From NCBI GenBank assembly GCA_023267215.1, contig JAHFNS010000001.1, forward strand, positions 98,736 to 162,735: a stretch of DNA of 64,000 nt, in the 5' to 3' direction. Within the stretch, counting starts at the first letter, position 1. Each line of letters begins with the position of its first letter. Origin of the DNA: Candidatus Nomurabacteria bacterium. Lineage in GTDB: Bacteria > Patescibacteriota > Minisyncoccia > Phycocordibacterales > UBA9973. This document shows positions 6,008 through 34,592 of the stretch, piece after piece. The notes under the pieces are model-generated. The model ran no database searches and was not told the origin of the DNA. It saw nothing but the letters and a program-made list of their open reading frames with translations. The translations under genes and the position numbers were made by a program.

Positions 6008-7726
6008 ATGAAATCAGAAACTAAAACATGTCAGAATTGCAAACAAGACTTCACTATCGAGCCAGAAGATTTTAATTTTTATGAAAAAATAAAAGTTCCA
6101 CCACCGACATTTTGTCCAGAATGTAGAAGACAAAGACGTTTTGTTTGGCGAAATGAACGGGTGTTATATCGTCGTACTTGTGGTTTATGTAATAAAAATG
6201 TTATTGCAATATATCACGAATCTTCACCTTTTCCTGTGTATTGTCGAGAATGTTGGTATGGAGATAAATGGGATCCTACTTCTTATGGTAGAGAGTATGA
6301 TATGTCTAAATCATTTTTTGAACAATATAAAGAATTATCTAATGTTGTTCCAAGATTGGCTATGTGGCAAAGAAATTGTATAGATTCAGATTACTCAAAT
6401 ATGGCTGGAGAATCAAAAAATGTTTATTTATCTGTTTCGGTTGTAAAAAATTCAGAAAATATTTTTTATTCAAAATCCGTAGATAAATCAAAAGACATTG
6501 TAGATTGTTTAAATATTATAAATGGATCTGAAAGTTTATATGAAAATGTCGAAGCACAGAGTAATTATAATTCACAATATCTTTTATTATGTAGAAGTTG
6601 TATGGATTCTTATTATTTGGTTGATTGCGTAAATTGTAGTAACTGTTTTTTGTCTTATAATTTAAGGAATAAACAATTTTGTATAAACAACAAAGAATAT
6701 AAAAAGGAAGATTATTTTAGAGAGGTAGAAAAGTTCAATTTAAAAAGTAGAGCTTCTCGTCAAGTTTTATTAAAAAGATTTGATGAGATAAAAAAGAAAT
6801 CCATTTATCGTTTTGGAAATATTAATAGGTGTGTGAATGTTACAGGCAACAATCTTTTAAATGTTAAAAATGGTAAAAGTTGTTTTGAAATTTATAACAT
6901 AGAAAATGTAAAATATTGCTATAGAGCTTTTGATATTAAAGATTCTATGGATTTTGACTATGGCGGATGGTCAGAATTACTTTATGAATATACGACAGGT
7001 GCGTTACATGATTACAATGTTAAGTTTAGTTATTCCGCAATGGATTCTGTGAGAAATGCTGATTATACAGAATCTTGTAGAAATTGTTCTAATATTTTTG
7101 GTTGTATTTCTCTCGTAAACACAGAAAATACAATATTAAATAAGGTTTATCCCGAAGAGGAATACAAAAAACTTCGTGAAGAAATTATCAAACAAATGAA
7201 TGAAGTACCATATATTGATAAAGTAGGTAGGGTTTATAAATATGGCGAATTTTTCCCAATAGAGTTATCACCCTGGGATTATAATGAGACTTTGGCCCAA
7301 GAATTTTTTCCTATTACAGAAGATACTGCGAAAGAAAAAGGATATCCATGGCGTCATTCAAACATAAAAAAATTTGAAATTACAATTACTTCAGAAAAAA
7401 TTTCTGATAATATAGATGACGTCAATGAAAATATTTTAAAAGAAGTTTTAGGATGTGCCCATAAGGGGAATTGTAGTCATCAATGTAATGTTGCTTTTCG
7501 TATAACGGACTATGAATTTAAATTCTATAAAAAACATAACATACCGTTACCTATTTTGTGTTCAAATTGTAGACATTATGAGAGATTCAAAGTTATGCCA
7601 GCATTAGATTTGTGGCATAGAAAATGTATGAAAGAGGGTTGTGATAATGAATTTGAGACAGCTTATGCTCCCGACAGGCCGGAGATTGTTTATTGTGAGA
7701 GATGTTATCAACAGGAAGTGTATTAA
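6008..7726 (+). CDS. large Cys-rich (multi zinc-ribbon) protein of unknown function with duplicated N/C-terminal module
   Basis: 572 aa with many CxxC pairs. N-terminal CQNCKQDFTIEPEDFNFYEKIKVPPPTFCPECRRQRRF recurs C-terminally as CNVAFRITDYEFKFYKKHNIPLPILCSNCRHYERF. Sits between rseP and mraY. Confidence 0.7.
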   Translation: MKSETKTCQNCKQDFTIEPEDFNFYEKIKVPPPTFCPECRRQRRFVWRNERVLYRRTCGLCNKNVIAIYHESSPFPVYCRECWYGDKWDPTSYGREYDMSKSFFEQYKELSNVVPRLAMWQRNCIDSDYSNMAGESKNVYLSVSVVKNSENIFYSKSVDKSKDIVDCLNIINGSESLYENVEAQSNYNSQYLLLCRSCMDSYYLVDCVNCSNCFLSYNLRNKQFCINNKEYKKEDYFREVEKFNLKSRASRQVLLKRFDEIKKKSIYRFGNINRCVNVTGNNLLNVKNGKSCFEIYNIENVKYCYRAFDIKDSMDFDYGGWSELLYEYTTGALHDYNVKFSYSAMDSVRNADYTESCRNCSNIFGCISLVNTENTILNKVYPEEEYKKLREEIIKQMNEVPYIDKVGRVYKYGEFFPIELSPWDYNETLAQEFFPITEDTAKEKGYPWRHSNIKKFEITITSEKISDNIDDVNENILKEVLGCAHKGNCSHQCNVAFRITDYEFKFYKKHNIPLPILCSNCRHYERFKVMPALDLWHRKCMKEGCDNEFETAYAPDRPEIVYCERCYQQEVY

Positions 7727-7729
7727 ATT

Positions 7730-7770
7730 CCCCTAAGCTGGGCTTAGGGGACAGAAGCCCAGCTTAGGGG
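7730..7770. repeat. family C GC-rich nested palindrome (intergenic Cys-rich gene / mraY)
   Basis: cccctaagc-tgg-gcttagggg-acag-aagcccagcttagggg. The left 21-mer is itself palindromic, and its reverse complement recurs 3'. Confidence 0.65.
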
Positions 7771-7798
7771 AAGTCTAAAAATATGTTAATATAACTAT

Positions 7799-8854
7799 AT
7801 GCTTTTGAATTTGATTAAAATTTTTTTACCAATGATGACAGCTTTGCTAATAGGGCTTTTCATTACGCCATTTGCCACTCATTTTTTTTATAAATACAAA
7901 ATGTGGAGAAAATATTCTCGTGGTGATACGGTTGGTACTTTAGATTTTAAAAAAATTCATAATAGCGAAGAAGAACTTAAAACACCTAGAGTTGGTGGAA
8001 TAATTATTTGGGTTTCAATCCTTTTTTCTGTTTTGATTTTTTATTTTATTTCAATTTTTTTCCCATCAGATAATACTGAAAAAATTAATTTTTTAAGCAG
8101 AAATCAAACTCTAATTCCTCTTTTAGTTTTAATTTTTGGTTCTTTATTAGGTTTAACGGATGATTTGATTCAAATTTATGGAAAAGGAAAAATTGCTCAT
8201 GATGATAAATCTTGGCGAAAATGGAAAGCGTTTTTAGTATTTCTTATTTCTTTTTTGATTGGACTTTGGTTTTATTATAAATTAGGAATGGTCTCAATTC
8301 ATATTCCTTTTAATGGGGATTTGTATTTGGGGATTTTAATTATTCCATTTTTCATAATTGTTTCTTTGGCCACTTTTTCTGGAGGAATTATTGATGGTTT
8401 AGATGGACTCTCAGGAGGAGTACTTGCCTCGATTTTTTCAGCTTATTCTGTGATAGCATTTATGAATAATCAAATCGATATTGCTGCATTTTCAGCTGTA
8501 GTAACGGGAGCAATTTTGGCATTTCTTTGGTTTAATATTCCACCGGCTAGGTTTTATATGGGCGAAACAGGAATTATAGGTCTCACTATTACTTTGGCCA
8601 CCTTGGCTTTTTTAACTGATACCGTTTTGATTTTACCTATTGTGGCAATGCCTTTAGTTGTGACTTCTTTATCTGTTATTATTCAAATGATTTCTAAAAA
8701 AATGAGGAATGGTAAAAAAGTTTTTAAAATATCCCCACTGCATCATCATTTTGAAGCTTTAGGTTGGTCTCCTTATAAAGTGGTTATGCGTTATTGGATT
8801 TTTTCAATCTCTTTTTCAATTATAGGAATAATTTTAACTGTGATAAGTAGATAA
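7799..8854 (+). CDS. mraY: phospho-N-acetylmuramoyl-pentapeptide transferase MraY
   Basis: Polytopic membrane protein. DDxxD-type (TDDLIQ), ISPLHHHFEALGW (MraY HHH signature). Confidence 0.85.
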   Translation: MLLNLIKIFLPMMTALLIGLFITPFATHFFYKYKMWRKYSRGDTVGTLDFKKIHNSEEELKTPRVGGIIIWVSILFSVLIFYFISIFFPSDNTEKINFLSRNQTLIPLLVLIFGSLLGLTDDLIQIYGKGKIAHDDKSWRKWKAFLVFLISFLIGLWFYYKLGMVSIHIPFNGDLYLGILIIPFFIIVSLATFSGGIIDGLDGLSGGVLASIFSAYSVIAFMNNQIDIAAFSAVVTGAILAFLWFNIPPARFYMGETGIIGLTITLATLAFLTDTVLILPIVAMPLVVTSLSVIIQMISKKMRNGKKVFKISPLHHHFEALGWSPYKVVMRYWIFSISFSIIGIILTVISR

Positions 8855-8858
8855 AATC

Positions 8859-9962
8859 ATGAGAGAAAGAAAAGTAGATAAATTTTTTTTAGTAATAGTT
8901 TTTATTTTGATTGTTGTTGGTTTTGCGATGTTTATCTCTGCTTCTTTGGGTATTTTAAATAAGAGCGAAAGTACTTTTTATTCTGTGCTTATTAGTCAAC
9001 TTATCCTTGGTTTTGGATTCGGTTTTTTGGGAATGTATTTTGCTTATAAAATTGATTACAAATTTTGGCGTAAATATTCTTTTTATATTTTTTTAGGTTC
9101 TGTGCTTTTAACAGCTGCTGTTTTCATTCCTTTTTTAGGCTGGAGTCATTTAGGAGCAACAAGATGGATAGAGTTAGGACCTTTGAGATTTCAACCAGCT
9201 GAATTTTTAAAATTTGGTTTTGTAATTTATTTTGCCGCTTGGCTTTCTTGGGCAAAAAATAAAGTGCAAGACTTCAAATTTGGTATTTTACCACTTGGTA
9301 TATTATTGGCCATTATCGCTTTTATTTTATTTAATCAACCAGATACGAAAAGTTTTATTTTAATTGCAATAACAGGCATATGTATGCTTTTTATCTCTGG
9401 TGTATCAATGAAATATTTATTACTAATTGGTATAGGGTCTATCGTAGTTCTCGGTTCTCTGGTATATTTTACTCCTTATCTTCAAAGTCGGGTAAAAACA
9501 TTTATTGATCCTTCTCAAGATCCACAAGGCTCTTCTTATCAAATACAACAATCTTTAATTGCGATTGGTTCAGGTGGAATCTTTGGCAGGGGATATGGTC
9601 AAAGTATTCAAAAATTTAGTTATTTACCTGAACCACAAGGAGATTCTATTTTTGCTGTTATTGGAGAAGAATTAGGTTTTGCAGGAGGAGTTTCCATAAT
9701 TTTACTTTATTTAATTTTTTTATTACGTGGTCTTAAAATTGCTAATAATTCTCCCGATTTATTTAGTAGACTTTTGGTTTCTGGAATTGTTATACTAATA
9801 GTGGCGCAATCGTTTATGAATATCGCTTCAATTACTGGAGTTTTTCCGTTGACAGGAGTGCCACTACCTTTTATGAGTCATGGCGGAACTTCATTAATGA
9901 TTTATCTTATAGCGATGGGTATCGTTTTTCGAATATCAAAATATCAACATAAAAATATATGA
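8859..9962 (+). CDS. ftsW: SEDS-family peptidoglycan glycosyltransferase FtsW/RodA
   Basis: 10-TM profile, LPEPQGDSIFAVIGEELGFAGG and PLPFMSHGGTS SEDS motifs. Overlaps murG start by 4 nt. Confidence 0.8.
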   Translation: MRERKVDKFFLVIVFILIVVGFAMFISASLGILNKSESTFYSVLISQLILGFGFGFLGMYFAYKIDYKFWRKYSFYIFLGSVLLTAAVFIPFLGWSHLGATRWIELGPLRFQPAEFLKFGFVIYFAAWLSWAKNKVQDFKFGILPLGILLAIIAFILFNQPDTKSFILIAITGICMLFISGVSMKYLLLIGIGSIVVLGSLVYFTPYLQSRVKTFIDPSQDPQGSSYQIQQSLIAIGSGGIFGRGYGQSIQKFSYLPEPQGDSIFAVIGEELGFAGGVSIILLYLIFLLRGLKIANNSPDLFSRLLVSGIVILIVAQSFMNIASITGVFPLTGVPLPFMSHGGTSLMIYLIAMGIVFRISKYQHKNI

Positions 9963-11089
9963 AAATAGTATTTACAGGAGGAGGAACAGGTGGGCATTTT
10001 TATCCGATTATTGCTGTTGCTCAAAAAGTTAATCAAATAATAGATAAAGAAAAAATAATAGGAGTAAAACTCTACTATATTTCTGATAGTCCATATGACA
10101 AAGAAATGCTTTTTGAAAATGGACTTATATATGAAGAAGTAAGTTCTGGAAAGATGCGTATCTATTTTTCTTTTAAAAATTTTACCGATATTTTTAAAAT
10201 GTTTTTTGGTACGATTAATGCAATTTATAAACTATTTACAATTTATCCAGATGTTGTTTTTGGTAAAGGTGGATATGGTTCATTTCCGACAATTTTAGCA
10301 GCGAGGATTTTACATATTCCTATTGTTATTCACGAATCAGATTCTGCTCCAGGGCGAGTGAATAAATGGGCTGGTCATTTTGCTAAAAAGATTGCTCTTT
10401 CTTTTAAAGAAGCGGCAGAGTATTTTCCAAAAAATAAAGTGGCATGGACGGGACAACCAATTTTAGTTGAAAAAGAACATAAAGCACCACAAAAAGAAGC
10501 ATTGGAATATTTTAAATTAGAATCAAATTTACCTGTCGTATTTATTTTAGGTGGTTCTCAAGGTGCAGAAATTATAAATAATACAATATTAGAAGCACTT
10601 CCTAGATTAATAAAGAATTTTCAAATAATTCACCAGACGGGAATAAATAATTATAATAATGTTGTCGGACAAGCGAAAGTTATTTTAGAATCCAATCAAG
10701 AAAAAATAAGATATTTACCTTTTGCTTACCTGAATCCTTTAGAAATGAAAATGGCTGCTGGGGTGGCAACAATCATTGTTTCTCGGGCAGGTTCAACTAT
10801 TTTTGAAATAGCTTCTTGGAATGTGCCATCTATTTTAATTCCTTTTACTAATTCAAATGCAGATCATTCAAGAAAAAACGCATTTAATTATGCACATACA
10901 GGAGCATGTGATGTGATAGAAGAAGCAAATATGACGGCTAATATTTTAAGTTCTGAAATTGAAAGAATAATAGAAGATAAAGAAGTTTGGAATAAAATGA
11001 CAGAAGCTACAAAAAATTTCAATAAACCCGATGCAGCTCTCAAAATCGCTCGCGAACTCGTAGACATAGCTCTTGCACATGAGAAATAA
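9959..11089 (+). CDS. murG: UDP-GlcNAc:undecaprenyl-PP-MurNAc-pentapeptide GlcNAc transferase MurG
   Basis: MKIVFTGGGTGGHFYP N-terminus, GGSQGA, GT28 fold. Confidence 0.85.
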   Translation: MKIVFTGGGTGGHFYPIIAVAQKVNQIIDKEKIIGVKLYYISDSPYDKEMLFENGLIYEEVSSGKMRIYFSFKNFTDIFKMFFGTINAIYKLFTIYPDVVFGKGGYGSFPTILAARILHIPIVIHESDSAPGRVNKWAGHFAKKIALSFKEAAEYFPKNKVAWTGQPILVEKEHKAPQKEALEYFKLESNLPVVFILGGSQGAEIINNTILEALPRLIKNFQIIHQTGINNYNNVVGQAKVILESNQEKIRYLPFAYLNPLEMKMAAGVATIIVSRAGSTIFEIASWNVPSILIPFTNSNADHSRKNAFNYAHTGACDVIEEANMTANILSSEIERIIEDKEVWNKMTEATKNFNKPDAALKIARELVDIALAHEK

Positions 11090-11176
11090 TTGTGATATAA
11101 TATACTTAGTTAATTAGTATCTTGATAGTTTAATAATCAAAGTTTTTAGAATTTCACTATATTCCAAAAAGAAGAG

Positions 11177-23829: not shown

Positions 23830-25323
23830 TTATTTTTTTATGAGAGTCACTATTTCTTCACCTTCCGAAAGACCCGTCGAGACTTCTGTCATTCCTCCAT
23901 CACCTTCCATACCTGTAGATATCTCTACTTCTTTATAATCTTTAGTTTTTGTATTTGTCACCAAGCGAATAGTTTTCACTCCAGTTTTATCTTTTAATAT
24001 TGCTCGAGAAGGAACTACTAAAACATTATTTTTCTCCCCTACTAGAACAGTCATATTTGCTGTCATTCCTGGACGGAGTTTTGGTGTGTCTGAAACGTTA
24101 GCAGTTATTTTGTAATTTACTACTCCAGAAATAATAGTAGAGGCAGGATCTATTTTTAATATAGTACCTTTAAATATTTGATCAGTATTAAATGCATCAA
24201 ATGTAATATCTATCGGAGCTCCTATTTTAATACTGGTTACATTTGCCTCATTTATATTTGCTTCTAAATAAACACTGTTTACATCTTGCAGAGTCACTAC
24301 ATTTTTTAGAGCTTGGGCTAGTTCGCCAATTTTTATATCTACATTTGTAATAGTTCCACCTGCGGGGGCACGAAGAATAGTGTGTTCTAAATTTGCACTA
24401 GCTAATTGAAGTTGTCCTTCGGCAGTTAAAATATTTGCTTTTGCAAGATCTATATCAGCTCCACGAGCTCCAGCTTTTTTCAAAGCGAGAGCTGCTTCTT
24501 GTTGTGTTACTAGATTTAATGCTGATTGATATGTATTATAACGAGTAATGTAGGTTCCAGATTTAGTATTTGGAATTGAAATTATCCATTGTACATTGAA
24601 ATTTTGAAGAAAGTTAGCTGGAAATTGAATAAATAAACCCTTGGTTCCGAGTGGTGTCGCGATAGATGTACTAACAGAACCAGTAAAAGATTCAATTCCA
24701 GAAGTAGTAAAATAAGATGAAGAACCAGGAATGACAGTAATCACATAATCACCTTTTTCTTCTCCTGTATATGTACCAGATATAGTCGGAGCGGTAATAA
24801 TATTTGAATTTGTGCTGTTGCTAGGTACGGCTATTAGATCATTTGTAAGAAGAGTATTATATGCATTACTAGCATCACTACGTGCATTATCTAGCGCTAT
24901 TTGTGCTAATTTTATTTCTTCATTTGAAGCACCATCTAAAATTGCTTTATATCTAGCTTCTGCAGCTGCCACAGCTCCGCGAGCTTGTGTGAGTGCTGCC
25001 AATTCATTACCTTGATCTAGGGTGGCTAAGATTTGTCCAGGTCTAACGGTATCCCCCACTTTTATTTTTAGCGAACGAACTATCCCACTACTAAAAAATG
25101 ATAAATTTAAATCGGTATTAGATGTCACTTGACCTGTCGCCAAGACAGTTTGTTTAAGGTTTGTAATTTTTACTGTATCCGTAGTGATATTGGCGCTATT
25201 GTTTTTAGATTTGAATATCATATATCCAATCAAAATTACAACAATTAAAATAATTCCATAAATTACTTTTTTAGTTAAAGACCACATTTTAATTTTTTCC
25301 CAAACGTTTTTTACTTTTTGCAT
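23830..25323 (-). CDS. HlyD/MacA-family periplasmic adaptor (membrane fusion protein)
   Basis: N-terminal TM, biotinyl/lipoyl-like half motifs, coiled-coil hairpin, beta-barrel region. Heads the operon adaptor-ATPase-permease-permease. Confidence 0.7.
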   Translation of the reverse strand: MQKVKNVWEKIKMWSLTKKVIYGIILIVVILIGYMIFKSKNNSANITTDTVKITNLKQTVLATGQVTSNTDLNLSFFSSGIVRSLKIKVGDTVRPGQILATLDQGNELAALTQARGAVAAAEARYKAILDGASNEEIKLAQIALDNARSDASNAYNTLLTNDLIAVPSNSTNSNIITAPTISGTYTGEEKGDYVITVIPGSSSYFTTSGIESFTGSVSTSIATPLGTKGLFIQFPANFLQNFNVQWIISIPNTKSGTYITRYNTYQSALNLVTQQEAALALKKAGARGADIDLAKANILTAEGQLQLASANLEHTILRAPAGGTITNVDIKIGELAQALKNVVTLQDVNSVYLEANINEANVTSIKIGAPIDITFDAFNTDQIFKGTILKIDPASTIISGVVNYKITANVSDTPKLRPGMTANMTVLVGEKNNVLVVPSRAILKDKTGVKTIRLVTNTKTKDYKEVEISTGMEGDGGMTEVSTGLSEGEEIVTLIKK

Positions 25324-30991: not shown

Positions 30992-31429
30992 TTATTTTTC
31001 TTTTTTTATAATATCCTTTTTGCCATCTGAATAACCCTCAATGACTTCAATTTCTTCAGGATTAGAAAAATATTCAATAGTATTAGCTAAAGCAGCTTTC
31101 TTAAATAATTCATTTGAATAAACAGCAGGTATCCCCTCTGAACAAGAAAGAGTTATATGAGAGTACTCATTTTTTGATTTTAGGTTTTCAACCAAGAGAG
31201 CATCTCCTTTTTCATCATATGCACGTCCAATAATTTTCATTATAGTTTCTTTTCCTATTTCTATTCCATCCAAATTATCAGGTTTAAATGCAATAGTTGA
31301 ATGATGCCCAAAAACTTTTTTATGTTTAGGTGGAAATTTCTTTAATAAATTTTGTACATCTTTTACAAATTCAGCTGTGTACATTATAAATATCTTCTCT
31401 TTATTTTCTAAATTACTTTGTTCAATCAT
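30992..31429 (-). CDS. 2H phosphoesterase-like protein (two HxT/S motifs)
   Basis: GHHSTIAF and SHITLSCS (H-x-T-x twice) spaced as in LigT/2',3'-cyclic phosphodiesterase family. 145 aa. Confidence 0.5.
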   Translation of the reverse strand: MIEQSNLENKEKIFIMYTAEFVKDVQNLLKKFPPKHKKVFGHHSTIAFKPDNLDGIEIGKETIMKIIGRAYDEKGDALLVENLKSKNEYSHITLSCSEGIPAVYSNELFKKAALANTIEYFSNPEEIEVIEGYSDGKKDIIKKEK

Positions 31430-31745: not shown

Positions 31746-31789
31746 ATACTTAGATTATATCAAATTTAAATTAAAAAGTATTAGCTGCT

Positions 31790-31801
31790 GGGAGGCTCGG
31801 G
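31790..31801 (+). repeat. 11-12 nt direct repeat of the tRNA-Gln 3' end (gctgggaggct), candidate att remnant
   Basis: Same 11-mer as plus-strand 33556..33566 (acceptor 3' strand, discriminator and first C of CCA of tRNA-Gln), in the same orientation. GC-rich, so unlikely by chance in this genome. Confidence 0.4.
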
Positions 31802-31881
31802 CTGGGACCCCTTGATTCCTTACCTCATAATGTTATTTTTAACTCTTTTATTATATCAAAACGACGTATCTCGAGCACTAA

Positions 31882-32550
31882 TTATAAATCACTTTTTCCA
31901 ATATTACATACTGAGCAAAGTGTCTGTAAATTTTCTAAAACAGTTTCTCCACCTTTCGCCCATGCCTTTATGTGGTCAACATGCAGAATAATACTTGGGT
32001 CAGTTGCAGGTGACCTCCCACAATTTTTACATTTAAAATTGTCTTGTCTCATAACAACAAAGCGGAGTCTCCAATTTATTGTTCTTGATGTTTTATGTTT
32101 TGTGCTTGGCTCAATTCTAAATTTTTTTACTGCTTCTTCAGAAGAGACATCTTCTTCTTTGTTCATATATGTAACAAATTTCTCTAATGCTTTATGCCAA
32201 CCACCAAAACGTCTTGCGTAGGTATCAACACTGTATTTTGAAAATGGTTTCAGAATATCCCCATATTTAGGTTGTTTGCCAAGTTTTATCCAAATTTCTT
32301 CTAGATTCTTAAACAACTCTTCTTCTGGGAGATTCATTGGTGTTCTATTATCTTTAAGATTGGCTTTTTCTAACGCAGTATGCCAACTTCCAAAACGACG
32401 AATATAAGTTGTACTATGAAATTTCCCTTTTTTATCTTGTTCATCACGAGTAATTGAAGGTTTATTCAACATTAAAGCAAGTCCCCTTAAATCAGCGACC
32501 AGTTCTTCGTCTGTAACACCACGATGATAATCTTCGAGTTCAAATTTCAT
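31882..32550 (-). CDS. HNH endonuclease with two N-terminal HNH-associated repeats
   Basis: C-terminal CKNCGRS...HVDHIKAWAKGG...NLQTLCSVCN (HNH). Repeats RRFGSWHTALEKANL / RRFGGWHKALEKFV. Start taken at MKFELEDY to avoid overlap (track ORF runs to 32664). Confidence 0.8.
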   Translation of the reverse strand: MKFELEDYHRGVTDEELVADLRGLALMLNKPSITRDEQDKKGKFHSTTYIRRFGSWHTALEKANLKDNRTPMNLPEEELFKNLEEIWIKLGKQPKYGDILKPFSKYSVDTYARRFGGWHKALEKFVTYMNKEEDVSSEEAVKKFRIEPSTKHKTSRTINWRLRFVVMRQDNFKCKNCGRSPATDPSIILHVDHIKAWAKGGETVLENLQTLCSVCNIGKSDL

Positions 32551-32584
32551 AATTTTATTATACCAAAATAACGTCTTTCTAGTG

Positions 32585-33154
32585 TTATTGTTCAGCAATC
32601 TCTTCAATAGATTCTCTGGTAATTCTAATTTTTTTTCCAGTCGGAAGAGTGATAACCGATTCAATTTTTAGAATTAATTCTAAAGGTTCTAATTGGTTAT
32701 CTTCTACTCGAATTTCTCCTGTTTTCTCATCAAGCACAACATGAGCTTTTTCAGAATTTCCATCTCGTTTGCCAATTATTAAATGCATATCGCCAACTTC
32801 TTTGGAGCGCGATTCAATAAATAGTCCCTCGGCGTCCAATCGATTTTTAAAAGTTTTGGTTGAGCTCTTTATATGATTCAAGATTTCATCTATAAAAATT
32901 CTCCAAATCTCAAGCCTTGTGTGTGCAGTCATTACATTATGAAAACCTGGTTTAAGTTGTGTTCTCAATCCACTGTTTAACTTTTTAAACTTTAGTTGTA
33001 AAATTTCATCATCTAAATTTTTTACAATATCAGTAAGCTCAGACCTAATTTTAGATTCAACGCTTTCTAATCTTTCTCTCTCTAAAAGATCTTGACCGCC
33101 CAATAAATAGCATCTATCTATTTCTTGTAATAATAATTTTAAAATATGTTCCAT
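32585..33154 (-). CDS. hypothetical protein (189 aa)
   Basis: ORF between the HNH gene and tRNA-Gln. No motif recognised. Confidence 0.45.
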   Translation of the reverse strand: MEHILKLLLQEIDRCYLLGGQDLLERERLESVESKIRSELTDIVKNLDDEILQLKFKKLNSGLRTQLKPGFHNVMTAHTRLEIWRIFIDEILNHIKSSTKTFKNRLDAEGLFIESRSKEVGDMHLIIGKRDGNSEKAHVVLDEKTGEIRVEDNQLEPLELILKIESVITLPTGKKIRITRESIEEIAEQ

Positions 33155-33188
33155 ATATTTGACGCATCTCGAGCAATGATAAAATCAA

Positions 33189-33476
33189 TTAACCTTTTAC
33201 AAAAGTTATAATGACAAGTGCTATTGTAGCCAATGCAAGTATGCCTGTAGCAATAGCTAAAATCCAGGTAGCACGAACAAGTGCATCGGTGTGTTTGTCT
33301 GAAGAACTTGATGCTTTCTCAATCGCGTCTTTTGCGTAACTCAAAGCCGTCGATGTTTTTGAGCCTGAATTAAATATAGCAACTGTTAGTTTATGGATTG
33401 CACGATTTATGCCTGTACCAACAGTACCTCCATTTTGATTTATATCGTCCCAGCCATCTAATTCAAAATTTCCCAT
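33189..33476 (-). CDS. small tail-anchored membrane protein
   Basis: 95 aa, single C-terminal TM (ILAIATGILALATIALVIITFV). Confidence 0.4.
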   Translation of the reverse strand: MGNFELDGWDDINQNGGTVGTGINRAIHKLTVAIFNSGSKTSTALSYAKDAIEKASSSSDKHTDALVRATWILAIATGILALATIALVIITFVKG

Positions 33477-33553
33477 ATGTTTAAAAAATATTTGTAAACA
33501 AGCTTACAACTTGCAGATGAGAAGGAACTCGAGCGCGCGAACCTAGCTCAAAC

Positions 33554-33627
33554 TGGCTGGGAGGCTTGGAATCGAACCAAAATTGATCGCTTCAAAGGCG
33601 ACTGTCCTACCGTTAGACGACCTCCCA
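33554..33627 (-). tRNA. tRNA-Gln (anticodon UUG), CCA encoded
   Basis: Reverse complement reads TGGGAGG TC GTCT AACGGTA GGAC A GTCGC CTTTGAA GCGAT CAATT TTGGT TCGATTC CAAGC CCTCCCA G CCA. It has U1-A72, G73, GG in the D-loop, a TTCGATT T-loop, and anticodon loop CU-UUG-AA. Confidence 0.8.
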
Positions 33628-33630
33628 AAA

Positions 33631-34326
33631 TTATTTTTTTATTATATTTTCAAAAATACCTTCTGACCAACCTGCTATTTTTCTTACCAAACTTGAACTT
33701 TCCCTAACCTTTATTTTTAATACTCCATGATACTTTTCATTGGTATTTTTGCGATTGGTCGTCAATTTATTTCTTTTCCAATAAACAGCAGAAAAGTTAT
33801 TGATAGGAAAACCTGTTACTTTTGACCAATATTTCCTTACTTCTTCAACTCTATCTTTATGGGTTTGATGAAGAAATATATTAAAGATTAGCATATTTTT
33901 ATTGATTTTGCACACCCTAATAAGCCAAATTAAAAAGACCTGTATCATTTTGGGATCCATGTTAGAAAATTGAAGTTGAGATCCTGGGTAGTATTCTTTT
34001 TCCTTTGCACCTTCTGCCCAATACATAATAACTCCTATTAAAAATAATTCTTTACTAGTAATAGTATTAATTTCTAAATTGGCTTGCGTGAAAATTTTAT
34101 TTTGTTTTTCTATTCTTTGTTTTCTTTTCGCATCACCACCTCTCTGAGAAGCGGCTAATCTTTCTTTCGTAATTCTTTGTTTTTGTTTTTTACCTAGTTT
34201 TACAGATTGTAACCAAATAGCCAAAGTTGATTTTGCAATAGGGACAATAGACAAAATTTCAGAATAAGTCTTCCCTTCTTTGCGTAATTTTATAACTAAT
34301 TCTTTTTCTTTTGTTTTTTCTATCAT
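33631..34326 (-). CDS. HTH-domain protein (resolvase/transposase-type N-terminal HTH), function unknown
   Basis: N-terminal KELVIKLRKEGKTYSEILSIVPIAKSTLAIWLQ helix-turn-helix. Central IGVIMYWAEGAKE weakly LAGLIDADG-like. Immediately upstream of tRNA-Gln. Confidence 0.5.
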   Translation of the reverse strand: MIEKTKEKELVIKLRKEGKTYSEILSIVPIAKSTLAIWLQSVKLGKKQKQRITKERLAASQRGGDAKRKQRIEKQNKIFTQANLEINTITSKELFLIGVIMYWAEGAKEKEYYPGSQLQFSNMDPKMIQVFLIWLIRVCKINKNMLIFNIFLHQTHKDRVEEVRKYWSKVTGFPINNFSAVYWKRNKLTTNRKNTNEKYHGVLKIKVRESSSLVRKIAGWSEGIFENIIKK

Positions 34327-34373: not shown

Positions 34374-34592
34374 TTATCTTTTTACTTTTTTAGATTTAAC
34401 AACACCATTTTTGAACCAAAAACCAACAGTACTTTTACCTATTTTTAATTTATCTGCTATCTGACAAAAACTAAAACCTTTTTTTCTAAGCATTGCTGCT
34501 TTTTCTTTAATTTTTAAACTATGTGAAATCATATATATTAACAATATACTTTTATATTTTAATAATGTGAAGTAATGTAAATAGAAGTACAA
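34374..34592 (-). CDS. small HTH protein, paralog of the N-terminus of 33631..34326
   Basis: KEKAAMLRKKGFSFCQIADKLKIGKSTVGFWFKNG aligns with the HTH of the neighbouring gene. Confidence 0.4.
   Translation of the reverse strand: MYFYLHYFTLLKYKSILLIYMISHSLKIKEKAAMLRKKGFSFCQIADKLKIGKSTVGFWFKNGVVKSKKVKR

Follow-up and report, generated by a model that had tools for sequence, protein, structure and literature searches.

Within a 64,000-nucleotide stretch of a Candidatus Nomurabacteria contig (the window), we find a 1.8-kb islet (31787-33566) that is, on balance, probably what remains, decayed and lacking an integrase, of DNA inserted in the chromosome at the 3' end of a tRNA-Gln gene. An earlier note, written from the letters of the window, had proposed a decayed or minimal element integrated in the tRNA gene. 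A repeat of the tRNA 3' end, the same design at a second locus (L088) and the lack of the islet genes in L008 and L004, the closest relatives available, agree with that proposal; the notion of one element does not fit, since the three genes of the islet do not form one and the HNH endonuclease gene among them is independently mobile. The locus is a decayed or stacked tRNA-Gln islet, probably the outcome of a familiar kind of event in a little studied host group. CPR bacteria (Patescibacteria) have tiny genomes with few recognised mobile elements, and their gain of accessory genes is poorly documented.

ARAGORN and Rfam (tRNA family, 59 bits) agree on a tRNA-Gln(UUG) on the minus strand at 33554..33627, with CCA encoded (lower end 33554 or 33557), as had been read from the sequence. 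Within the 64 kb there are exactly two occurrences of the 11-mer GCTGGGAGGCT, 33556-33566 and 31787-31797, both in plus-strand orientation; it spans 2 nt of the T-stem, the 3' strand of the acceptor stem, the discriminator and the first C of CCA. The exact, same-orientation repeat that the earlier note had reported thus exists, with its distal copy 3 nt away from the position first given (31790..31801), and the 11-mer is infrequent in the window rather than present at many unrelated sites. Ungapped extension of the match into the T-arm gives 23 nt with 18/23 identities (78%), 31787-31809 against 33556-33578. Read on the minus strand, the proximal copy (33556..33578, exact core 33556-33566) runs through the T-arm and the acceptor 3' strand to the discriminator and the first C of CCA, and the distal copy (31787..31809, exact core 31787-31797), GGTCCCAGCCCGAGCCTCCCAGC, resembles a decayed tRNA-Gln 3'-end remnant. 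The distal copy sits beyond the tRNA 3' end, in direct orientation, where the accessory genes end, and the geometry of a tRNA-integrated element had been recognised correctly. The islet starts about 77 nt past the tRNA-Gln 3' end on the same strand, and the tRNA gene is intact. Rfam gave no match at the distal GC-rich patch, the tRNA alone being detected in its scan, and a structured RNA or terminator at this patch was ruled out (folding z = 0.73, terminator scan blank). The GC content of the islet is raised only slightly, too weakly for use as evidence.

Between the two copies lie, all on the minus strand, the three ORFs that had been described there, namely a 95-aa tail-anchored protein, a 189-aa protein and an HNH endonuclease with two N-terminal repeats. 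The 95-aa ORF (33189..33476) encodes a small near-orphan protein with a hydrophobic C-terminal anchor, which has no match in Pfam, PHROG or PADLOC; among 1.84 billion representatives, just 4 have E<1e-10. The interval between the repeats has no integrase-like ORF, in agreement with the first reading, and searches against Pfam, PHROGs, PADLOC and NCBIfam revealed no integrase or recombinase among the ORFs between or beside them. The hallmark integrase and replication module of tycheposon-type elements are likewise absent from the islet by Pfam, PADLOC and NCBIfam. Exact-protein look-ups of the window genes matched only contigs identical to the window and gave no variant contexts.

Of the three genes, only the 189-aa ORF (32585..33154, minus strand), the conserved core gene of the islet, is tied to tRNA-Gln across genomes. 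Its family is rare (25 homologs, 56-84% identity, among 5.8 billion proteins) and patchy, one copy of 67% identity being located in a conjugative-type region of Bacteroidota, and a dN/dS of about 0.08 shows strong purifying selection. At five loci (the window, L088, L096, L097 and L102) the gene is found on the 3' side of tRNA-Gln, in the same orientation. These tRNA-linked loci involve both the UUG and the CUG isoacceptor and include one unrelated chromosomal context; L102 differs in its chromosomal context and tRNA isoacceptor, and there the gene begins 40 nt past the tRNA. A leader resembling the tRNA end precedes the gene in L085, and in L100, L104 and L087 the gene has no nearby tRNA. Elsewhere its neighbours are restriction-modification, toxin and ubiquitin-like genes, which hints at a possible role in defence or addiction. 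The family has no match in IMG/VR, GenBank phages or PLSDB, and an AF2 model of the protein (pLDDT 84) found no fold match in PDB or BFVD.

The association with tRNA-Gln might instead have been inherited. The 189-aa gene would then have resided near DnaX and tRNA-Gln for a long time, perhaps in one transcript with the tRNA, and would have been lost in most lineages, and the tRNA-like fragments would have arisen by local duplication or gene conversion. DnaX adjoins tRNA-Gln in every Paceibacteria relative examined, and since four of the tRNA-linked contexts of the 189-aa gene have the DnaX neighbourhood in common, part of the association could indeed be inherited rather than reacquired. In the window, L088, L097 and the P0003 contig the gene follows Dus, DnaX and tRNA-Gln, and its strong purifying selection and its close spacing to the tRNA in L102 would suit a resident gene, as would the partial tRNA-Gln duplications seen also on the 5' side in L006 and L102. 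We nevertheless hold this explanation to be rather unlikely. A resident gene with just 25 homologs would hardly be expected to have one at 67% identity in Bacteroidota, or one in the different context and beside the different isoacceptor of L102. For the window and L088, identity is 84% in the 189-aa protein and just 56% in DnaX, and the 189-aa gene has a lower synonymous divergence (pS 0.555) than DnaX, Dus and a 231-aa gene (0.68-0.70). Moreover, the remnants represent only the 3' half of the tRNA. Attachment sites look like such 3'-half remnants, and decayed whole tRNA genes would leave more.

The closest available relatives also argue against an inherited linkage. L008 and L004, whose DnaX proteins are 80% and 77% identical to that of the window, have tRNA-Gln and DnaX, yet at the tRNA-Gln locus they carry none of the three islet genes and no tRNA-3' remnant. 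The comparison with related genomes that the earlier note had called for gave no precise empty site in either relative, the downstream flanks not being syntenic with the window, and relative to L008 the whole of ~25.3 to 33.5 kb (~8 kb) differs, not just the 1.8-kb islet. Among the relatives examined, none has the same three genes and no repeat.

Locus L088 shows the same design as the window. Its order is tRNA-Gln(UUG), a 398-aa ORF, a tRNA-like remnant, the 189-aa homolog (84% identical in amino acids, 82% in nucleotides), a 57-aa ORF and a further tRNA-like remnant. The two remnants, of about 42 nt, are homologous (nhmmer E 1e-9 to 1e-10), whereas the separators in the window are GCTCGAG motifs only. 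The distal remnant reads GGTTCTAGCTCGAGTTCCCCCAGCAAA against GGTTCGAGTCCAAGTTCCCCAGCAAA in the tRNA and is the top non-self match in the L088 locus. Each distal copy matches the acceptor stem of its own genome (CCTCCCA in the window, TTCCCC(C)A in L088), and both have (C/T)CGAG where the tRNA reads CCAAG, together the pattern expected of a hybrid attachment site.

How far the repeat in the window exceeds chance differs by test because the null models differ. In a naive test, in which the last 45 nt of the tRNA were compared with the 6 kb downstream and any exact match of >=11 nt was counted, 9/200 shuffles reached such a match because AT-rich words match easily, and a gapped Smith-Waterman comparison was not significant (z = 1.2). 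By composition-aware scoring the repeat reaches 30.0 bits against a mean of 16.4 and a maximum of 24.8 for shuffles, 0/100 of which reach it. It is also the top non-self match on both strands of the whole window (128 kb search space; 27.7 bits against 20.5 for the next), with p roughly ~1e-3 for 5 kb downstream and ~1e-2 window-wide. The repeat therefore exceeds chance expectation once base composition is counted, and the earlier judgement that such an 11-mer is unlikely to arise by chance holds by this score and does not hold by the naive and gapped tests. The remnants are too decayed for profile searches: a tRNA-Gln profile HMM detected none of them at E<=20, and the copies in the window were missed by an HMM of the remnants in L088 and L094. 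Testing for a tRNA-3' remnant gave p ~0.01 or better at 3/4 gene-carrying loci versus 0/6 relatives lacking the 189-aa gene.

A coincidental 11-mer in a GC-rich intergenic patch, with the three genes being unrelated lineage-specific insertions (for example through homing-endonuclease traffic) at a recombination-prone locus, would be compatible with the naive, Smith-Waterman and profile results. It would also accommodate an HNH gene that is demonstrably independent of the other islet genes and a region of difference from L008 far larger than the islet. Such a coincidence is unlikely, given the composition-aware score and the rank of the match as the best in 128 kb. Furthermore, the match lies exactly at the tRNA 3' end, in direct orientation and closing the accessory genes, and the repeat in L088 matches the acceptor stem of its own tRNA.

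Short motifs mark the boundaries of the islet genes. The tRNA trailer (33505..33553, minus strand), with TTGAGCTAG...GCTCGAG (GCTCGAG at 33528-33534), aligns both with the leader that precedes the 189-aa gene in L085 and with the tRNA-Gln trailers of L088, L096, L007 and L005; the trailer motif is absent after tRNA-Gln in L008, L009 and L010. Six nucleotides upstream of the 189-aa start codon is the boundary motif GCTCGAGATGCGTC (33161..33174, minus strand), and nucleotide homology with L088 starts exactly here (33174-32586 versus L088 7980-8569, 82% identity). The 3' boundary motif GCTCGAGATACGTCGTTTTGATATAATAAAA (31846..31876, minus strand), 5 nt past the HNH stop codon, matches the sequence found directly past the 189-aa stop codon in L094 and L099 (TAGTGCTCGAGACCCGTCGTTT). 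GCTCGAG is present at every gene boundary of the window and L088 islets, always on the tRNA strand, with 3/7 occurrences in the window and 5/5 in L088 at boundaries (expected totals 1.56 and 0.50). We rejected the idea that GCTCGAG is a general genome motif: it is enriched overall, and in both islets it is found only at gene boundaries.

The HNH gene (31882..32550, minus strand; start codon ATG at 32550) encodes a homing endonuclease of 222 aa with two HNH_repeat units and an HNH domain (Pfam PF18780, 8.8e-27; PF01844, 1.2e-11). It is an independently mobile, free-standing homing endonuclease gene that is probably nested in the islet as a secondary insertion. More than 2,900 homologs in Patescibacteria are 70-91% identical, and nucleotide homology to copies elsewhere is confined to the ORF, stopping at its ends. 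These other copies lie between unrelated genes and not beside tRNAs; an identical protein (P0073) has at least four different flanking contexts, in which homology to the window is likewise limited to the ORF. In the window the ORF is bracketed by a duplication of ~30 nt: just upstream of the gene, a degenerate copy of the 3' boundary plus a promoter-like segment (CTAGAAAGACGTTATTTTGGTATAATAAAA; 32553..32582, minus strand) is 80% identical to 31846-31875 and contains TGGTATAAT, the HNH start codon following 6 nt later. At the HNH-free junction of the L094 type, the 189-aa stop codon is followed by TGCTCGAGACCCGTCG.

Free-standing HNH homing endonuclease genes, such as those between phage genes, have the same HNH plus HNH_repeat architecture, and they too are ORFs wedged in short intergenic gaps, with near-identical ORFs between unrelated neighbours. 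The likeness covers the HNH gene only and not the islet, and the HNH family of the islet is chromosomal in CPR bacteria. Looking for this family in CPR phages or plasmids, as had been suggested, gave no phage or plasmid link: similarity to phage genes is restricted to the catalytic domain, with no full-length phage homolog. A phage or plasmid origin of the islet was rejected on these catalytic-domain matches and on the absence of the 189-aa family from the viral and plasmid collections. Scanning viral sequences for GGTTCNAGCTCGAGTT gave 41 matches, roughly judged to be at about chance level, none in a related context.

Directly on the 5' side of tRNA-Gln, the window, L088 and L011 carry a gene of a 231-aa family, which six relatives do not have there. 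Homologs of the 231-aa protein with 79-82% identity (P0147-P0153) are encoded on other contigs; its identification as a LAGLIDADG enzyme was unsupported by Pfam, NCBIfam, a PDB sequence search and Foldseek. Spread without an integrase, in which a homing-type endonuclease (HNH, or the 231-aa or 189-aa candidate) cuts at or near tRNA-Gln and repair from the donor allele copies adjacent genes, with tRNA- and trailer-like repeats giving homology, is quite improbable: there are selfish genes on both sides of tRNA-Gln, a 15-nt duplication of D-arm sequence from the tRNA encloses a GIY-YIG ORF in L102, much as the ~30-nt duplication encloses the HNH ORF, and no recombinase is near the islet, but the 231-aa and 189-aa proteins have no detectable nuclease fold or motif, HNH copies elsewhere are away from tRNAs, and homing normally splits its target site and leaves no direct repeats.

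We favour entry of DNA at tRNA-Gln, probably in two or more steps. Most likely, the tRNA gene would have recombined site-specifically with a tRNA-like site on the incoming DNA, through a recombinase that was either supplied in trans or has been lost since. A crossover inside the 11-nt identity block of the acceptor 3' strand would keep the tRNA intact and give the far end a hybrid copy similar to the tRNA 3' part. The empty-site junction is predicted to lie inside AGCCTCCCAGC, and a candidate attP would consist of GGTTCYAGCTCGAG followed by acceptor-strand sequence. The assemblies from two samples both break inside 33530-33557, the one hint at an excised or circular form or at population heterogeneity at the junction. 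The 189-aa gene is probably the core passenger; across genomes it is accompanied by a leader similar to the tRNA-Gln 3' end plus trailer, including GCTCGAG. The 95-aa gene would have been added on the tRNA-proximal side, and the HNH ORF would later have been wedged between the 189-aa gene and the 3' boundary of that gene.

tRNA-targeted integrative elements and genomic islands of the tyrosine-integrase type, with an attachment site in the tRNA 3' half, also combine an intact tRNA 3' end, a distal direct repeat and accessory genes that are absent from close relatives. The islet differs from these in having no integrase, excisionase or replication gene, in its size of only 1.8 kb and in an exact core of only 11 nt. 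In the tycheposon-type tRNA islands of Prochlorococcus, modules are stacked beside a tRNA and parted by partial tRNA copies, and degenerate, integrase-less remnants occur as well (bioRxiv 10.1101/2020.12.28.424599). The streamlined host genome and the two modules of L088, parted by tRNA-like remnants, are similar. However, the islet has no hallmark tyrosine recombinase, primase or helicase, each of its modules is a single gene, it differs in phylum and target tRNA, and the GCTCGAG separators of the window are not recognisable partial tRNAs. Integron gene-cassette arrays resemble the islet in having promoter-proximal single genes in one orientation, a recurring short boundary motif and a fixed entry point, but the islet has no IntI integrase or attC-type imperfect hairpins, and its entry point is a tRNA. 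Integron-like attC hairpins were rejected, as the boundary regions show no more folding than shuffled sequence does (z = 0.73 and -0.23).

A far more speculative reading, to which we give little credence, is that the 189-aa gene and its leader resembling the tRNA-Gln 3' end and trailer (including GCTCGAG) constitute a minimal, integrase-less mobile cassette specific to tRNA-Gln. Single genes would then accumulate in an integron-like manner 3' of the tRNA, with the tRNA end as entry site, and the 189-aa protein, which has no known fold and always occupies the usual place of an integrase, beside attachment-site-like sequence, could be a new site-specific recombinase, a nuclease or a factor acting on tRNA-Gln. 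Should insertion turn out to need no classical integrase, streamlined genomes would have a new route of gene gain. If the islet is instead a decayed element of the integrase type, it is an ordinary island remnant, useful mainly for annotation. Small selfish or accessory genes have landed repeatedly at the conserved junction of DnaX and tRNA-Gln, on either side of the tRNA, and the locus ties a rare, strongly conserved protein family of no known fold to tRNA-Gln.

The window represents an AT-rich CPR genome whose best DnaX matches are Candidatus Nomurabacteria/Paceibacteria MAGs (77–80% identity). A Dus-DnaX-tRNA-Gln block is conserved across Paceibacteria, with tRNA-Gln about 20–130 nt after DnaX in five relatives (L005, L006, L008, L009 and L010). 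In the window, insertions flank tRNA-Gln(UUG) (33554-33627, minus strand) on both sides, and the 3' one is the islet (31787-33566). It contains the three ORFs that the earlier note described: a 95-aa ORF with a hydrophobic C-terminal tail, a 189-aa ORF and an HNH gene with two HNH_repeat units. We also agree that an integrase is absent, as nothing among the ORFs of the interval is recombinase-like. The islet is probably the decayed, integrase-less remnant of at least one small insertion: one or more elements would have landed at the tRNA-Gln 3' end by site-specific recombination, the recombinase would since have been lost or be supplied in trans, and the HNH gene would have joined afterwards.

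None of the three islet genes is found in the closest available relatives, L008 (80%) and L004 (77%). Synteny of L008 with the window picks up again only at window 23830-25323; the differing region is therefore about 8 kb and an exact empty site is unreadable. In L004, tRNA-Gln (11066-11137) is inverted relative to DnaX, with its 3' end pointing to DnaX. Two sequencing runs (SRR14366760 and SRR14366756) each gave contigs identical to the window, and in both the assembly stops and resumes inside the 28 nt at 33530-33557, at the tRNA 3' end and trailer. These breaks are compatible with, and may stem from, population heterogeneity at that junction of the islet, but are no proof of it.

The 189-aa gene, the most telling of the three, is rare, with 25 homologs among 5.8 billion proteins (56–84% identity), mostly from Parcubacteria/Patescibacteria plus one copy (67%) in Lacibacter luteus (Bacteroidota). 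In the window and four other contexts it lies 3' of tRNA-Gln on the same strand: beside the UUG isoacceptor in locus L088, and beside the CUG isoacceptor in L096, in L097 (3.7 kb 3' of the tRNA) and in L102/L103 (40 nt 3', in an unrelated chromosomal context beside CTP synthase). No tRNA was found near the gene in L100, L104 or the Lacibacter locus L087. In L097 (7278-8567) the 189-aa domain forms the C-terminal part of a 429-aa ORF adjoining type I restriction-modification genes, and the Lacibacter copy (L087 453-10819) has as neighbours PemK, genes for type IV secretion coupling proteins and E2/E1/JAB-like genes; both settings are defence- or mobile-type neighbourhoods. A confident AlphaFold model of the protein (pLDDT 84), helical in its N-terminal half and beta-rich in its C-terminal half, has no PDB or BFVD match, and the protein has no family match either.

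The recurrent position beside tRNA-Gln could also be read as inheritance of the gene together with the tRNA, plus a local duplication of the tRNA region, which we consider unlikely. The 189-aa proteins of the window and L088 share 84% identity (82% for the nucleotides), against 49–59% for DnaX, Dus and the 231-aa protein encoded 5' of the tRNA. The synonymous difference of the 189-aa gene (pS 0.555) is lower than the near-saturated 0.68–0.70 of these three, and its dN/dS is about 0.08, which together show a functional gene that is younger than the host split, yet no recent arrival.

The 11-nt direct repeat that the earlier note placed at the islet ends does have an exact second copy, 3 nt away from the distal coordinates proposed. 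The 64 kb contain just two exact copies of the 11-mer GCTGGGAGGCT, both on the plus strand. One, at 33556-33566, comprises the acceptor 3' strand, the discriminator, the first C of CCA and 2 nt of the T-stem; the other is at 31787-31797. Ungapped extension yields 23 nt (18/23 identical; 31787-31809 vs 33556-33578), so that the match reaches the T-arm. Its significance varies with the null model chosen. When the 6 kb downstream were shuffled, 9 of 200 trials still gave 11 or more consecutive identical nucleotides somewhere in the last 45 nt of the tRNA, as its AT-rich stretches find matches readily; gapped Smith-Waterman alignment was not significant. Under log-odds scoring at 30% GC the 23-mer reaches 30.0 bits, a score attained by 0 of 100 shuffles (mean 16.4, maximum 24.8), and no other non-self match on either strand of the window scores as high (27.7 bits; next 20.5). 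The assertion that a chance 11-mer is improbable holds under the composition-aware score but not under the naive exact-match and gapped tests. We regard the repeat as real, at about p = 1e-3 locally, and find it quite unlikely that it arose by chance in an ordinary variable region.

A second islet of like design lies in L088: tRNA-Gln (6534-6605) is followed by a 398-aa ORF without family match, a first tRNA-like remnant (7927-7968, about 42 nt), the 189-aa gene, a 57-aa ORF, a second remnant (8903-8944) and then unrelated genes. Both remnants share homology with one another and with one that comes after the 189-aa gene in L094 and L099 (nhmmer E 1e-9 to 1e-10). The distal one, GGTTCTAGCTCGAGTTCCCCCAGCAAA vs GGTTCGAGTCCAAGTTCCCCAGCAAA in the L088 tRNA, is the top non-self match of its locus (21.9 + 18.2 bits across a 1-nt indel); the minus-strand sequence of the distal copy in the window is GGTCCCAGCCCGAGCCTCCCAGC. 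In the distal copies of both genomes (C/T)CGAG replaces the CCAAG of the tRNA, and each copy terminates in the acceptor strand of its own genome. Such a mosaic would be expected of a hybrid attachment site, with an element-derived inner part, a host-derived 3' end and a crossover in the identity block. A tRNA-3' remnant at about p <= 0.01 was detected beyond the 3' end of tRNA-Gln in three loci (the window, L088 and L097), not in L102, which has the 189-aa gene, and in none of six relatives without that gene (L004, L005, L006, L008, L010 and L011). A tRNA-Gln profile HMM detected no remnants and a remnant HMM missed the window's copies; the fragments are short and decayed, and caution is called for.

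The islet boundaries share the motif GCTCGAG, present seven times in the window (1.56 expected), three of them at islet gene boundaries on the tRNA strand (33534, 33174 and 31876). L088 has five copies (0.50 expected), every one of them within its islet, at a gene boundary and on the tRNA strand. The stretch over which the window and L088 are homologous at the nucleotide level opens exactly at the motif upstream of the 189-aa gene and closes at the stop codon of that gene. In L094 and L099 the 189-aa stop codon is followed by CTAGTGCTCGAGACCCGTCGTTT, which matches what follows the HNH stop codon in the window (TTAGTGCTCGAGATACGTCGTTT). The tRNA trailer, TTGAGCTAG or GTTCGTGCG followed by GC[T/A]CGAG, recurs in the window, L088, L096, L007 and L005, and in L085 it is found in the leader of the 189-aa gene; L008, L009 and L010 have no such sequence behind tRNA-Gln. 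We read the motifs as putative stacked, decayed junctions. They do not form hairpins, unlike integron attC sites. A regulatory role is also conceivable, since promoter-like TGnTATAAT sequences follow the motif closely.

The HNH gene had been taken as part of one integrated element; it is instead a separate invader, behaving as a free-standing homing endonuclease gene. It starts at 32550 and encodes 222 aa. Nearly all of its more than 2,900 homologs are about 223 aa long, and among the 120 matches listed, identity is 63–91% and the named sources are almost all Patescibacteria, often on short contigs. One such protein (P0073), identical at several loci, sits in an HTH-HNH-DsrE setting with at least four different outer neighbours, once adjoining a serine recombinase; none of these loci has a tRNA, and nucleotide homology to the window is confined to the ORF. 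The HNH ORF is flanked by two imperfect direct copies (about 30 nt, 80% identical; 32553-32582 vs 31846-31875) of the boundary and promoter segment, each with a TGnTATAAT element, which place it between the 189-aa gene and the original 3' boundary of that gene. The behaviour of the HNH gene does not reveal which enzyme moved the islet.

On the 5' side, the DnaX-tRNA gap of about 1.7 kb holds a 263-aa ORF, a 72-aa truncated paralog (34374-34592, minus strand) of the 231-aa protein, and the HTH-containing 231-aa ORF itself (33631-34326, minus strand), immediately 5' of tRNA-Gln. The 231-aa family (924 homologs, the named ones all CPR; no Pfam domain) occupies the same position in L088 (5853-6548, 50% identity) and L011 (11908-12588, 40% identity), and is absent in six relatives whose DnaX abuts the tRNA. 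Apparently this is another selfish gene, directed at the opposite side of this tRNA. An assignment of the 231-aa protein as a LAGLIDADG enzyme was not supported. In L102 (7637-7960) a GIY-YIG ORF (7640-7888) between a 15-nt exact D-arm copy (CTAATGGTAGGACAC) and an intact tRNA-Gln(CUG) looks like a homing-endonuclease insertion at the 5' part of the tRNA, and a 29-30-nt copy of the tRNA-Gln 5' half in L006 (11036-11206; nhmmer E 2e-4), about 70 nt upstream of the intact tRNA, is the footprint of another event there. Such selfish genes and copies lend some encouragement to nuclease-driven co-conversion as an explanation of the islet, but neither the 231-aa nor the 189-aa protein could be shown to have a nuclease fold, and we hold this route to be very unlikely.

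Islands at tRNA genes that carry partial-tRNA repeats and have lost their integrases are a familiar phenomenon. The design of the islet, read as a remnant of site-specific insertions, resembles the tRNA islands of other streamlined genomes, in which elements stack beside a tRNA with partial tRNA copies between them and decay (bioRxiv 10.1101/2020.12.28.424599), but none of their hallmark genes is present in the islet. What is new is the host group, the minute size of the single-gene modules and the association of tRNA-Gln with a rare family of unknown fold; the literature searched yielded no prior description of this. It is a distant prospect that the locus represents an integrase-less cassette system with the tRNA-Gln end as entry site and the 189-aa protein as a possible active factor.

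On the window minus strand, TGnTATAAT followed by ATG 6–8 nt on is found at only four gene starts (32550, 31745, 31429 and 25754, the last reading TAGTATAAT), three of them in or just beside the islet, suggesting leaderless transcripts; the plus strand has two weaker TAnTATAAT matches. A tandem repeat with GGTTCAAGCTCGAGTT in its unit, in viral contigs L122 (13215-13950; spacing 360 nt) and L145 (978-1980; spacing 372–615 nt), has no relation to the islet; the motif scan alone brought it up. The HNH gene and a 145-aa ORF (30992-31429, minus strand) that lies two genes past the distal repeat are preceded by 22-mers 95% identical to each other. The 145-aa protein has two H-x-T/S motifs and a weak Pfam match to the tRNA-ligase cyclic phosphodiesterase domain (2H phosphoesterase), and is possibly an RNA-end repair enzyme near a tRNA-linked islet.
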